A stretch of 64,000 nt of DNA, taken from assembly GCA_965204375.1 (NCBI GenBank), contig OZ241986.1, positions 1,664,001 to 1,728,000 on the forward strand. Direction: 5' to 3'. Position 1 is the stretch's first letter. Every line of letters starts with the position of its first letter. The stretch comes from Candidatus Latescibacterota bacterium. Lineage in GTDB: Bacteria; Latescibacterota; UBA2968. Shown piece by piece: positions 35,215-49,178 of the stretch. The translations under genes and the position numbers were made by a program. The notes beneath the pieces are model-generated. The model saw only the letters and a program-made list of their open reading frames with translations. It was not told the DNA's origin and did no database searches.

Positions 35215-36108
35215 ATGGTCATTCGCATTTCAAATCTGACAAAAGTATATCGCCGTGGCGCGGTTCCCGCCTTAGACGATGTCACATTGACCATTCCGCA
35301 CGGAACATTTGGTCTGCTGGGCCCCAATGGTGCAGGCAAGACAACGCTGATTAAAATTTTATCGACTCAGATGGACGCATCGAGCGGCAGTGTGACCATG
35401 GATGAGTTCGACCTCGTAAAAGACCGCACTGAAATTCGCCGGCGCCTGGGATATTTACCCCAACATTTTGGGACGTATCCGCAACTGACTGCCTGGGAAT
35501 TTCTCGATTATATGGCTGTTTTAGGCGGCATGCATAATAGAAGTTCGCGTTTGAATCGCGTGGAACAAGCTCTAAACGAAGTCGGATTGTACGAAGCGCG
35601 CAATCGGCGCTCGGGCACGTTTTCAGGTGGCATGATGCGCCGCCTTGGCATTGCACAGACCATTTTGACCAATCCAGAATTTCTCATTGTCGATGAACCC
35701 ACCGTAGGACTTGACCCGGAAGAGCGCATACGGTTTCGGGGTATTTTGGGACGCTTGAGCAGCGATCGCGCAATTTTGATTTCCACGCATATTGTGGGCG
35801 ATATTTCGAGCACCTGCGAAGATCTCGCGGTCCTGGATACCGGACGGCTGATCTTTCGCGGTTCTCCCGGAGAACTCATTTCCAAAGCCGATGGCAAAAC
35901 GTGGGAAGTACAGGTCGATGACGCTGGCTTTGAAATGCTGTCGCGCGTGTTTCGCGTAGTCACAGTAAATGTTGAAGGCGATCTGATGCGTCTGCGTATG
36001 GTGGGCGATGGCGAGCCTCCCGCTGATGCCGAAGCAGTCGCGCCCAATCTCGAAGATGCCTATGTCTATTTTGTCGGAGGCGATACCACAGGCGAAATCG
36101 CCGCGTAA
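35215..36108 (+). CDS. ABC-2 type (DrrA-like) ATP-binding protein
   Basis: GLLGPNGAGKTT, GYLPQ, FSGGM, IVDEPTVGLDP, STH, P.LEDAY. Confidence 0.95.
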   Translation: MVIRISNLTKVYRRGAVPALDDVTLTIPHGTFGLLGPNGAGKTTLIKILSTQMDASSGSVTMDEFDLVKDRTEIRRRLGYLPQHFGTYPQLTAWEFLDYMAVLGGMHNRSSRLNRVEQALNEVGLYEARNRRSGTFSGGMMRRLGIAQTILTNPEFLIVDEPTVGLDPEERIRFRGILGRLSSDRAILISTHIVGDISSTCEDLAVLDTGRLIFRGSPGELISKADGKTWEVQVDDAGFEMLSRVFRVVTVNVEGDLMRLRMVGDGEPPADAEAVAPNLEDAYVYFVGGDTTGEIAA

Positions 36109-36120
36109 AGGATTAATGCC

Positions 36121-46700: not shown

Positions 46701-48478
46701 CAGCGACCACCATTTTGGGCGTTTTGCCTCTGGCACTCACGTTTGGCGGCGATTACGAAATTTGGCCGCCCTTTGCGATTACGGTGCTGGGGGGAATGGC
46801 GGTTTCAATGGTATCTACCCTCGTATTTATACCCGTGATGTACATGGGAATTGACCAGATCAAAGCCTGGTTGGCGGATATTGGCTGGTTCGGGATCGTA
46901 TTGGGGACGGCAGCCGCTGCGGGATTGACGTATTGGGTTGACGATTATTACCAGAGTTTGTTCTGGACCTGTCTTTTGGCATTGCCGGCGTGGATGTTGT
47001 GTATGAGCGTGGTCTGGATTGTGCAACGCATTTATCGCGCGCGTATGGCTTCTCTTGCTGAGATCGGGAATATTGAATATCTCGAAATTCGCAATCTGAC
47101 AAAAATTTACGGCGCGCCGGGGCGGTTTAAGCACGAATGGGATCGCTTCAAGCGCCGCAATCAGCGCCTTTTAGAGCGCGGACAGGTATTGGTAGATAAA
47201 AAGGCGATTCGAGATAGTTTGTGGTGGAAGTTACCACTTGTGGTACTTTTGATCTATTTAGAAACCTATTTTGAACAGGGATCCTGGATCTTTTTGACGG
47301 GGCTTGCTATATGGGGTCTTATACATCACCTTGTGCTTTGCGCGGCAGCTTTGCGCGATTTTCAGATTGAGAACAGATGGATATCACAAATCGCCCAATT
47401 GATTTTGCCGCTGGTCTTTGTCGCCTTTATCCATTGGCGTTTGGAACTTATATCTTTGACTATAGCCACTTCTGCAATCTACTTTCTCTATCGCATCATC
47501 GGATTTTTGGCAAATCGCGTCGCACGAGGTCGCGTTGATCCCGAACATATACCGGGAAAGTTGGGCCCTGTAAAAGGCATTGTGTACCGCGGTGCTGCAG
47601 CCGTTCCCCTGATTGGCGTTCCCCGTCCGCAATTTCAGGCTCTCGGCGGTGTGAGTCTCGATATACCACGCGGCATGTTTGGCCTTCTGGGTCCCAATGG
47701 CGCGGGCAAGACCACGCTGATGCGAATTGTCTGTCGGGTTTTGTCGTCAAATTACGGATCTGTGCTCGCCAATGGCAAAATACCGCTTACACATCGGAAT
47801 ATGCAGGGGGTGATTGGATATTTGCCGCAGCACTTTGGCCTGTATCTTCACATGTCTGCGTATAATTATCTGGAATACCGCGCGCTTTTGGAGGGATTTA
47901 AGGACGGGGTGGCACGGCGCAATCGCGTACAGGAATGTCTGGAGCAGGTCAATCTGTGGGATAGGCGCGACGATCCGATCGGTTCATTCTCCGGCGGTAT
48001 GAAACAGCGTGTGGGTATTGCACAAACTCTGTTGCACTTGCCGCAAATTATTGTGGTGGATGAACCGACAGCGGGATTGGATCCACTCGAGCGAATCCGG
48101 TTCAGAAATTTGCTGGCGCGATTTAGCCAGGAAAAGATCATTATTTTTTCCACGCATATTGTGGAAGATATTTCGGGCAGTTGCAACCAATTGGCCGTGC
48201 TGAATCACGGTAAGCTGCTTTATACGGGAACCCCGATTGAGATGCGCGATTTGGCGCGCGATAAGGTGTGGGACGCCCTGCTACCAGATCAGCGCTTTGA
48301 AGCGTTAGAACGCGATCTGGATATGATTACGCATGTGCGCGTACCCGATGGGATTCGAGTGCGATTTCTCGCCACTGATCCCATCCCAGAAGCATGTCCA
48401 GTTACGCCCACCCTCGAAGATGCGTACCTCTACCTTTTGCGACATGGCGATGAATACAAACAGTCTAACATGGCGTGA
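43751..48478 (+). CDS. RND permease fused in-frame to a C-terminal ABC ATPase domain
   Basis: One 1575-aa ORF: full RND (GMLMDNSIVVMENI, RVRPILMTS), extra TM helices, then GLLGPNGAGKTT, GYLPQ, FSGGMKQR, VVDEPTAGLDP, STH. Confidence 0.92.
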   Translation: MTLAGIAVRRPVTTAMFFLGLAILGAISLDRLPVQIFPELVRPEVFITVTQQGYSPEQVERELVMPVEGEVGKLEGIEAYESFSRQNNGQIRISYAPNTDMKFALLQLESRITRLQSLLPERTRVNIQRFDSSDLSASVMQIHVLGEGDINWLREFAEEKIRPELEAVDGVVNAQVLGGQRTAIEIIVDPLMLQAHQLAMSDVRNRINAFNTRRQYLGRVYDGDQAYAVSIQGQFTDLVQIRRVVIKPELPLHLGDIAQIRYGLQERTDLQRINGKPAVGIRIQKDDEANLIELAGELEDTIERVNRDLAYENIQLVISQNLAEIMNEALNTLKLAAVVGGLLGLFVLFLFLRNLRFVAVLLLAIPCSLLLTFNLMYMWDLSLNVLSLCGLALAIGMLMDNSIVVMENIFKHFEQGKSPKEAAKAGTDEVARAVVAATATTITVFLPVVFIQSDFQDILRELALSMVFPLLASLLVALTLVPALASKTLSLTSRPPTETGVLIEMYTVCLKAGLRHRISVSLGIAGALVVTLIISFFFMLQQDIRQEESRFTVYISMPEGTTIEALDAVVGEIESAVRDLKGIDRFTTSISETQASINVELLPLAERPDQISVDLIKENLEESFGDVQNAIVSYEAIARTGRGGGGGRGGGGGGGIRGTRQASGGFNLEGGTPSEMAVIRGYDFTVLQMLADDLVYRLEELEELDPNSVQADAERGASEVHVLPDEEVMFDRRLQVRQVLNAVSDANPRGARSNIAFLTPEGVEIPIDIRNVEDPEEEGEGIAGLRQTPILGTGGTYIPLVEVSHVRRDQGRSMILRTNQSRRVIVSYRFADEILQSQPLLEASRDYVQAVVSEMVLPEGYSIEMIEAEEETIYYWMLGIAALLIFMILASLFESLSAPLIILCTLPTAIIGSCWALVLSGTGLTQQEGPMALLGFIVLLGIAVNNGIVLIDAIGTLRNRRGFRRERAVLAASRSRVRPILMTSATTILGVLPLALTFGGDYEIWPPFAITVLGGMAVSMVSTLVFIPVMYMGIDQIKAWLADIGWFGIVLGTAAAAGLTYWVDDYYQSLFWTCLLALPAWMLCMSVVWIVQRIYRARMASLAEIGNIEYLEIRNLTKIYGAPGRFKHEWDRFKRRNQRLLERGQVLVDKKAIRDSLWWKLPLVVLLIYLETYFEQGSWIFLTGLAIWGLIHHLVLCAAALRDFQIENRWISQIAQLILPLVFVAFIHWRLELISLTIATSAIYFLYRIIGFLANRVARGRVDPEHIPGKLGPVKGIVYRGAAAVPLIGVPRPQFQALGGVSLDIPRGMFGLLGPNGAGKTTLMRIVCRVLSSNYGSVLANGKIPLTHRNMQGVIGYLPQHFGLYLHMSAYNYLEYRALLEGFKDGVARRNRVQECLEQVNLWDRRDDPIGSFSGGMKQRVGIAQTLLHLPQIIVVDEPTAGLDPLERIRFRNLLARFSQEKIIIFSTHIVEDISGSCNQLAVLNHGKLLYTGTPIEMRDLARDKVWDALLPDQRFEALERDLDMITHVRVPDGIRVRFLATDPIPEACPVTPTLEDAYLYLLRHGDEYKQSNMA

Positions 48479-49178
48479 GTTGCTCTTTTTCGTCGGAAAG
48501 ATGCACAGCCTGAGCATGAGAATCGTTTTTCACCGCAAAATGATTTTTATGTTCGGCGGAATTGTGGCGTATTACGCAATTTTGTACGCAATTGCAATCT
48601 GGCGTCCAGGCGAGGGGTTTTCAGTTGAGCAAGCCCTCCATGTATTGGTCGAAGTGCCGGGGACAGTGCTTGCAATTTATATGACGATGGATCTGGTGTC
48701 GGGGGAGAGGGATAAGGATACGCTTGAGATTTTGTTCAGCACGGCGATCAGCCACTATGCGACGTGGTCTGTGAGAATTGTGTCGATCAGCGCTGCACTA
48801 TTTGCCACGCTGATGGCAATGAGCACGATTTCCTACTATTTTTTCGCGGAGTTCCCCTATGTCCTGGGGGGATTGAATGCCTGTATTCCCGCCTTTTTTA
48901 TGGTGGGAGCCACATTTTTGTTTTCTGTTTTGTGTCGCAGTGGGAATGCGGCAGGTATGCTCGCTGTTGGGCTTTTGATTGCGATTTTGCTTTCTACCGA
49001 GACGTTTGAAGATACATCGTATTACCTTTTTCTCAAGCCATTTGATCCGCCTTCAGATTTAGATACCAGCCTGTGGGTAAATCGCGTAGTCTTAAACCGC
49101 ACGGGCATTGCCATTCTCGGTATATTGTTCATTTTTCTGGCTCTGAGACGAATGATAGAGCGCGAAAAGCTACTGTGA
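48444..49178 (+). CDS. ABC-2 type permease-like membrane protein
   Basis: About 6 hydrophobic helices; E.D..TLE.LFS motif typical of ABC-2 permeases; overlaps the previous gene's end. Confidence 0.8.
   Translation: MAMNTNSLTWRELLFFVGKMHSLSMRIVFHRKMIFMFGGIVAYYAILYAIAIWRPGEGFSVEQALHVLVEVPGTVLAIYMTMDLVSGERDKDTLEILFSTAISHYATWSVRIVSISAALFATLMAMSTISYYFFAEFPYVLGGLNACIPAFFMVGATFLFSVLCRSGNAAGMLAVGLLIAILLSTETFEDTSYYLFLKPFDPPSDLDTSLWVNRVVLNRTGIAILGILFIFLALRRMIEREKLL

Follow-up and report, generated by a model that had tools for sequence, protein, structure and literature searches.

A conserved fusion of an RND permease to an ABC ATPase in a six-gene operon of Latescibacterota

We analysed a stretch of 64,000 nucleotides from a Candidatus Latescibacterota bacterium (contig OZ241986.1, positions 1,664,001 to 1,728,000; hereafter the window, in which all positions are counted unless another locus is named). 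Between positions 35215 and 49178 the plus strand of the window carries six co-directional genes, g1 to g6. The fifth of them encodes, in one chain, a resistance-nodulation-division (RND) permease and an ATP-binding cassette (ABC) ATPase. By their energy source, RND pumps and ABC exporters are counted as two distinct classes of efflux system. The covalent join of the two described here is conserved, and it comes together with two ABC-2 permeases, a second ATPase, a periplasmic adaptor and usually a TolC channel. We lean towards the explanation that the gene products form one composite envelope exporter, in which an ABC module would be tethered to a heteromeric RND pump and would pass cargo on to it in a two-step relay.

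The operon and its fused gene

A preliminary description, made from the letters of the window, had reported six tightly packed genes that read in one direction and end in one terminator. The listing of open reading frames (ORFs) bears this out. Two gaps of 12 nt (g1/g2 and g2/g3) are followed by two overlaps of 4 nt (g3/g4 and g4/g5). At the last boundary g5 and g6 overlap or stand 22 nt apart, according to the ATG chosen as the start of g6 (48444, 48450 or 48501). A terminator-like hairpin with a U run lies 3' of g6 at 49244-49285. The RNA of 49179-49300 folds with -38.3 kcal/mol (z = -6.06), and none of 200 shuffled sequences folds as well. A simple scan for promoters and terminators missed this hairpin, and its counts were not above those of shuffled sequences.

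The gene products named in the same description match Pfam and NCBIfam models, or, for the small permease, a known fold. The free ABC ATPase g1 (35215-36108; 297 aa from the ATG at 35215, in an ORF that opens with TTG at 35143) matches ABC_tran (PF00005) with 3.3e-31 and 109.2 bits (cut-off 25). It is followed by the large permease g2 (36121-39606, 1161 aa) and by g3 (39619-40692, 357 aa), a periplasmic adaptor or membrane fusion protein (RND_mfp TIGR01730, 182 bits, cut-off 94.9; HlyD_D23, 2.1e-24). The first RND subunit, RND1, is encoded by g4 (40689-43754, 1021 aa), which matches ACR_tran (PF00873) over its full length (2e-233, 777.8 bits, cut-off 28). The 1575-aa protein of g5 (43751-48478) matches ACR_tran as well (4.7e-181, 604.4 bits, cut-off 28) and carries ABC_tran as a second domain at residues 1300-1441 (1.3e-25, 91.1 bits, cut-off 25). 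The small permease g6 (48444-49178, about 244 aa) lies in an ORF that opens at 48333. None of the six proteins matches FtsX or MacB_PCD at E<=0.01.

Both ATPases were said to keep Walker A and B, the signature and the H-loop, and they do, along with the Q-loop. GPNGAGKTT, LPQHFG, FSGGM, DEPT.GLD and STHIV are present in the translations of g1 and of the g5 ATPase, and the catalytic motifs are invariant in an alignment of 15 distant homologues.

Residues 1-1035 of g5 (43751-46855) are the second RND subunit, RND2 (NF033617 over residues 6-1035). Residues 1295-1575 (47633-48478) are the core of the ABC ATPase (PF00005) and its C-terminal domain, followed by the stop codon. The junction between the two is modelled as a linker of 260 aa with six predicted membrane helices, and not as a plain tether. 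Residues 1036-1575 were modelled with AlphaFold from an alignment of 34 sequences (pLDDT 77.5). Two long helices come first in the model, then a beta-strand and a charged helix; four helices, each of about 24 residues, and one further helix precede the ATPase. The two long helices (2-32 and 35-67 in model numbering) form a predicted membrane hairpin after TM12, the twelfth transmembrane helix of the RND part (residues 1037-1102, 46859-47056), where the translation is hydrophobic. The four shorter helices (115-138, 142-166, 173-196 and 199-223), with only short loops between them, make up a predicted membrane insertion between strands 1 and 2 of the ATPase (residues 1150-1258, 47198-47524). From TM12 to the ATPase core the 15 aligned distant homologues keep this layout.

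The displaced first strand of the ATPase is LEIRNLTKIYG (residues 1110-1120, 47078-47110; strand 75-85 of the model). It shares its motif with ISNLTKVY, the first strand of g1, and L1116, T1117, K1118 and Y1120 are invariant in the 15 homologues. The match of g1 to GldA/DrrA-type models starts at profile position 1, whereas the contiguous match of the g5 ATPase begins at position 16 of the GldA profile. From the strand motif, the model and the late profile start we conclude that the four-helix insertion splits strand 1 from the core. Even helix counts would keep the fused ATPase in the cytoplasm.

The linker is specific to the fused family. Among 1.84 billion proteins, 153 cluster representatives match its profile. 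Those of full length all measure about 1550-1590 aa and have the linker at residues ~1030-1295; the remainder are fragments. No PDB sequence matches the linker at E<=1, and a Pfam scan finds no family common to more than one of 28 members. A disguised ABC-2 membrane domain was considered as well. It was rejected on these two results and on hhalign probabilities below 1% against g6 and g2.

By Foldseek the best matches of the fused ATPase are TM_1403 (4yer, 2.5e-18) and NosF (7o0y_C, 2.7e-17). A predicted complex of the C-terminal part of g5 with g6 scored 0.44 against 0.26 for a control; binding is neither supported nor contradicted by this. In the closest public relative the stop lies five codons before that of the window (L001:14690-14722, ending in DEYK versus DEYKQSNMA). 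Hence the extreme C-terminus of g5 is not conserved.

The large permease g2 starts with about seven hydrophobic helices (six of ABC-2 type plus one), a topology predicted from its sequence, followed by a region of about 880 aa that is probably periplasmic. The N-terminus of the window protein reaches 16 bits against ABC2_membrane (cut-off 25). Among 26 family members, four ABC2_membrane families match in 8, 4, 2 and 1 (PF12679 in 8 of 26, best 2.1e-9), and the homologue at locus L004 scores 29.6 bits for its ABC-2 membrane match (cut-off 27.2). The long region carries a Golvesin_C domain (5.7e-18), which is found in all 26 members, and 15 of them show a weak match to Peptidase_M1. Compared with PDB, the family profile matches the C-terminus of xanthan lyase 6f2p (2e-10) and tricorn F3 (341-422, 2.3e-6). 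The middle of g2 falls short of the M1 aminopeptidase family PF01433 (20.2 bits, cut-off 27.7), and its alignment to solved M1 enzymes is confined to the part after the zinc site. Since no His is invariant in the alignment of the 26 homologues, in which HEXXH is not conserved either, the M1-like part is probably no zinc peptidase.

The small permease g6 is 244-281 aa long, depending on its start (48333, 48444, 48450 or 48501); its homologues measure 233-241 aa in most loci. The Pfam match to ABC2_membrane stays below threshold (20.8 bits, cut-off 27.2), and 5 of 25 members match weakly. The AlphaFold model (pLDDT 80.9, pTM 0.80) has six helices, and Foldseek pairs it with the membrane domains of PmtCD, NosY, ABCG25, ABCG2 and Wzm. 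The VIA listing gives Z 16.4 to NosY (7znq_Y, rmsd 3.8 A, 222 residues), 16.3 to ABCG25/ABCG2 and 15-16 to ABCG and ABCA members. All 50 of the 50 matches listed are exporters of the ABC-2, ABCG, ABCA, ABCH or PDR type, that is, type V membrane domains. Judged by its model, g6 has an ABC-2 (type V) membrane-domain fold. We also considered g6 and the membrane domain of g2 as clear paralogues. Their only colinear match is weak (probability 8%, E 0.0043), and the idea was rejected for this weakness.

Low-complexity stretches rich in Gly and Arg (GGRGG repeats) occur in the periplasmic part of RND2 (45700-45780, residues ~655-675 of g5) and twice in g2 (38190-38330, and 39520-39600 at the C-terminus). 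Gly-rich loops like that of RND2 are found in closer homologues and are much shorter in the KSB1/Calditrichota group. At 38249-38332 in g2, one contig from an RNA library carries other letters.

Distribution, gene order and ancestry

A search for PF00873 and PF00005 in a single chain had been proposed as a check on the fusion. With residues 1040-1575 of g5 as the query, 120 of 120 listed homologues carry both domains, and most are 1540-1646 aa long. Among the matches listed, the organisms, where the source names them, are Latescibacteria, Gemmatimonadetes, Acidobacteria, KSB1 and Calditrichaeota.

A scan of one genome per species yielded 80 loci. The two best belong to metagenome-assembled genomes (MAGs) of Latescibacterota with 94-96% identity, and the full-length fusion also occurs in Bacteroidota and in one Calditrichaceae MAG. 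A single frame of 1500-1700 aa runs without a break through RND2, linker and ATPase in 40 of these 80. Cultured carriers are Draconibacterium mangrovi, Marivirga sericea, M. tractuosa, Maribellus maritimus, Parabacteroides massiliensis and Bacteroides sp. 224. Of the Latescibacterota genomes sampled, 79 out of 151 match the linker profile, as do 34 of the 52 of high quality and all 19 from the genus of the window. The profile matches one gene per genome; the double matches in two genomes are pieces of the same contig. In a Bacteroidota sample, with six candidates scored per genome, the linker was found in 4 of 401 genomes.

Sponge and coral metatranscriptome libraries of three studies contain relatives, 85-95% alike, that cover nearly all of 35000-49400. 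Their contigs bridge the g1/g2, the RND1/RND2 and the RND2/linker/ATPase/g6 junctions. The stretches 45743-49202 and 46658-49193 are bridged in this way, and the sole difference listed near the fusion is an in-frame change of 3 nt. DNA runs from sponge, coral and marine metagenomes, with shares of 0.17-0.27, were not taken as evidence of habitat.

Longer fusions were considered and rejected. Frames of 1768-2612 aa suggested a triple fusion of RND1, RND2 and ATPase; in both cases that were fetched, RND1 and RND2 lie in different frames. In the locus L043 a stop codon separates g5 from an apparently joined g6. Longer proteins that include g6 were looked for and not found; this is weak evidence.

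In public annotation the feature cannot be seen. The label of the fusion is just "efflux RND transporter permease subunit" and that of g6 "hypothetical protein", and g2 is a "golvesin C-terminal-like domain-containing protein", an "ABC transporter permease subunit" or a "xanthan lyase".

The fused gene keeps its company. We examined 48 fused loci, limiting each count to loci with enough flanking sequence. The adaptor is present in 41 of 41, RND1 in 40 of 41 and g6 in 43 of 44. The large permease g2 is found in 39 of 39 loci (five as split alignments) and g1 in 15 of 15 (one cut by the end of the locus, one split into two alignments). A TolC gene lies between g2 and the adaptor in 37 of 40 loci, for example in L004 (OEP, 1.9e-45); it is missing in the two Latescibacterota loci and in L035. 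Clustering of all flanking ORFs revealed no further conserved neighbour family. Latescibacterota, Bacteroidota and Calditrichota share this gene content, and the linkage of ABC and RND genes holds across phyla.

The linkage holds even where the order differs. In L045:5639-20950 the same seven parts follow each other as adaptor, ATPase, small permease, RND1, large permease, RND2-ATPase and TolC. The fusion there is 1438 aa long, with a short linker that has no membrane hairpins, and the large permease (919 aa) has no Golvesin_C match.

The absence of a TolC-like gene from the window, which had been pointed out before, is confirmed: no OEP/TolC match (PF02321) occurs within the 64 kb. Elsewhere in this genome of 6.34 Mb, OEP matches are found in eight open frames. 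Seven are TolC-sized and above the family cut-off, and one is weak and below it.

We calculated a maximum-likelihood tree of 53 RND domains. In it L023_2199 is a fused RND2, L029_6906 duplicates the RND1 of L029, and L029_20697 and L048_20592 are unrelated downstream pumps. The fused RND2 sequences all fall into a single clade (support 100), which also takes in that of L045. The RND1 partners, with g4 among them, make up another (support 100) with the same branching order. The RND1 clade is sister (support 97) to the first genes of unfused tandem RND pairs, and the second genes of these pairs make up a third clade. AcrB, MdtB and MdtC of E. coli fall outside these clades. The unfused tandem pairs have no ABC genes within 10 kb. 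From the clade structure and the ABC-free unfused pairs we conclude that the system derives from a tandem-RND pump that gained an ABC module, and that the fusion arose once.

In the same tree RND1 and the fused RND2 of the Calditrichaceae MAG (L010) both branch inside Bacteroidota, beside Marivirga. This placement suggests either a transfer between phyla or a binning error.

Both RND subunits had been credited with the Asp of TM4 and an RxRP..MT motif, which is right but not the whole picture. We aligned them with AcrB, MdtB and MdtC of E. coli and read the proton relay in AcrB numbering. Equivalents of D407, R971 and T978 are kept in both subunits, but D408 and K940 are replaced by Asn. In full, g4 has D, N, N, D, R and T at D407, D408, K940, N941, R971 and T978, and g5 has D, N, N, N, R and T. 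Neither therefore has the AcrB-type (HAE-1) relay D407/D408/K940/R971/T978 (D-N...N versus D-D...K). Eight other fused systems show the D-N...N relay with R971 and T978 kept. The unfused relatives show it, too: 26 of 32 have D/N/N/R/T, five differ at D408 alone (S or A), and L080 keeps the full AcrB pattern. Hence the pattern is a trait of the subfamily and says nothing specific about fusion or ATP. As a mark of ATP dependence it was rejected for this reason.

Upstream of the operon, at 29992-33312, lies a gene for a protein of 1106 aa with five lamin-tail-domain repeats (1.9e-67) and a weak match to the FlgD Ig-like C-terminal domain.

Mechanism and alternatives

In the composite exporter that we favour, g4 and g5 would form a heteromeric RND pump that pairs with the single adaptor g3. 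The outer-membrane channel would be supplied from elsewhere in this genome, and from within the operon in most relatives. From the C-terminus of RND2 six extra membrane helices would lead to the ABC ATPase and thereby tether a type V (ABC-2) module to the pump. The module would comprise two ATPases, the fused one and the free g1, and two permeases, the small g6 and the large g2. In the first step this ATP-driven module would extract an amphiphilic cargo, probably a glycolipid or another glycoconjugate, from the cytoplasm or the inner membrane, and the periplasmic domains of g2 would hold it. In the second step the RND, adaptor and TolC parts would expel the cargo across the outer membrane. If the RND trimer has a 2:1 composition, each pump would have one fused ATPase, which could pair with one g1, and g2 could pair with g6. 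A single heterodimeric ABC module and the use of both ATP and the proton motive force (PMF), as put forward in the preliminary description, are inferences at this point.

The hint at a glycoconjugate comes from the xanthan-lyase-type, carbohydrate-binding-like domain of g2 and from a paralogous gene pair in the same genome. This pair, g1'-g2' (G000:C1:4436636-4440936, that is L085 4636-8936; ~4.44 Mb), shares 81% identity with g1 and 67-70% with g2. It has no RND gene, no fusion and no g6 beside it. Two genes for GT4 glycosyltransferases, two of unknown function and one for a sulfotransferase follow downstream; upstream lie genes for a radical SAM protein and a sigma-54 response regulator. The cluster recurs in genome G033 of the genus, where no match to the sulfotransferase was found, and in part in G007. 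These neighbours hint that proteins of the g1-g2 type handle a glycoconjugate.

In favour of the composite exporter we count the conservation of the fusion, the co-occurrence of the parts even in the reordered locus L045, the parallel clades of RND1 and fused RND2, the type V fold of g6, the catalytic motifs kept by both ATPases, the hint at the cargo and the RNA-library contigs across the junctions. Several points weigh against it. Beyond gene content, fusion, conservation and folds, which are observed, we infer the complex past its covalent link, its stoichiometry, the relay and the cargo, and likewise the binding of g1, g2 and g6 to the fused protein. The hint at the cargo comes from one paralogous cluster in one genus and from the name of a binding domain. 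Because g1'-g2' stands without RND or g6, g1-g2 may be self-sufficient and homodimeric. PMF coupling cannot be inferred from AcrB, since the equivalents of D408 and K940 are absent in both RND subunits. The RNA-library contigs show presence in a library; they prove neither transcription nor a single transcript. In Bacteroidota, finally, the system is rare and its function accessory.

Alternatively, the ABC parts may not transport anything across the inner membrane. Cytoplasmic ATP hydrolysis moves periplasmic parts in NosDFY, MacB, LolCDE and FtsEX (mechanotransduction). Here ATP hydrolysis could move the periplasmic domains of g2, which would load the entrance of the RND pump and its adaptor or gate their assembly. 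The substrate would be periplasmic or come from the outer leaflet, and would be captured, processed or loaded. NosF is among the closest structures to the fused ATPase, and NosY among those to g6; both belong to NosDFY, an ABC-2 system with a periplasmic partner. The roughly 880 residues of g2 past the seventh helix, with peptidase-like and carbohydrate-binding-like domains, fit such a role, and the M1-like part, lacking a conserved zinc motif, would bind rather than cleave. However, the fold is common to true exporters too (ABCG, ABCA, Wzm, PmtCD), and g1'-g2' lies in a glycosyltransferase cluster, where a glycan exporter is expected. We regard mechanotransduction as credible and yet unlikely, at about one chance among four.

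Rather unlikely, too, is a dual-energy pump. The linker helices would couple the ATP cycle mechanically to the membrane domain of RND2 and so drive or gate an RND part with a reduced relay, and the ABC-2 permeases would pass on a glycoconjugate made in the cytoplasm. If this were true, a single machine would reach from the cytoplasm to the outside on ATP and PMF.

Less likely again are two separate ABC assemblies next to the RND pump. Two copies each of g1 and g2 would work on their own, and the ATPases of two RND2 subunits would dimerise over two g6. The fusion would then serve co-localisation or a fixed stoichiometry, and the modules may carry out related but separate steps. The occurrence of g1'-g2' without an adjoining RND fusion or g6 favours this arrangement, and so does the fact that in operons of the main type g6 adjoins the fused gene (43 of 44 loci). 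Other g2-like systems of the phylum also mix permeases and ATPases differently, as does L095 (G017:C27, 9362-17008) from another family of the phylum, where one g1-like ATPase precedes a tandem of two large g2-like permeases (23-24% identical to g2). In L045, however, the free ATPase adjoins the small permease and the large permease adjoins the fused gene, hence adjacency sets no fixed pairs of permease and ATPase. Moreover, all four ABC parts co-occur wherever the flanks permit a check, and an RND trimer would provide one or two fused ATPases, depending on the subunit ratio.

We dismiss almost entirely that the fusion stems from misassembly, an artefactual frameshift or gene decay, as the same open frame is found in 40 independent public loci, in the 120 listed proteins and in RNA-library contigs of three studies, with catalytic motifs invariant in 15 distant homologues.

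Comparison with known systems

The preliminary description knew of no functional characterisation of this architecture, and we found none in the openly accessible literature, supplements aside. By title and the start of the abstract, no publication on PF00873 together with PF00005 describes such a fusion. The passages on fused, chimeric and hybrid pumps in a review of tripartite pumps (Chem Rev 2021, PMC8277102) contain no such fusion, and the text examined gives no hits for ABC-2 or YbhG. By title, the golvesin literature holds nothing on bacterial ABC systems. The parts are of known kinds, and their covalent, obligate combination is an undescribed variant.

The system is a natural test case for three problems: how cargo passes from the inner membrane to the periplasmic entrance of an RND pump, whether ATP assists or gates the RND cycle, and how heteromeric RND trimers assemble. 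Since cultured carriers exist, the question is open to experiment.

The RND part resembles MdtABC-TolC of E. coli, where two different tandem RND genes also stand behind one adaptor gene and the equivalents of R971 and T978 are kept. The MdtB/MdtC pump has the stoichiometry B2C. Calling our system MdtBC-like, as was done at the outset, holds by analogy only. The scores lie far below the cut-offs of the MdtC model NF007905 (401.9 bits for g4 and 317.2 for g5, cut-off 1774) and of the MdtB model NF007798 (373.4 and 271.5 bits, cut-off 1584). Unlike MdtB and MdtC, g4 and g5 belong to a different clade, have D-N...N in place of D-D...K, and one of them carries an ATPase. The unfused tandem pairs (L046, L047, L051, L054, L055 and L078) are closer, sharing the order adaptor-RND1-RND2 and the D/N/N/R/T relay, but their RND2 lacks the ATPase.

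For the ABC part, NosDFY (7o0y, 7znq) offers the best or near-best structural match of the fused ATPase and of g6, and it too has a large periplasmic component on its module. In contrast to our system it has no RND permease, adaptor or TolC, and its periplasmic partner is a beta-helix in a protein of its own, whereas in g2 the M1-like and carbohydrate-binding-like part is fused to the permease. MacB-type (type VII) tripartite ABC exporters have an FtsX/MacB four-helix domain with a periplasmic domain between TM1 and TM2. For g6 the predicted fold is type V instead, and the modelled four-helix insertion of g5 has short loops.

YbhGFSR of E. coli and the cyanobacterial DevBCA-HgdD are ATP-driven exporters that work with a membrane fusion protein and a TolC-like channel. 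Of the two, YbhFSR contains a pair of different ABC-2 permeases, and DevBCA exports glycolipids. Unlike our system, neither has an RND permease, nor an ATPase fused to one.

Two-step efflux is known from single-component inner-membrane pumps, which act together with RND tripartite pumps: the first step crosses the inner membrane, the second leads from the periplasm to the outside. In the known cases of such interplay the pumps are separate proteins under separate control, whereas here one operon encodes both energy classes, and a single chain holds part of each.

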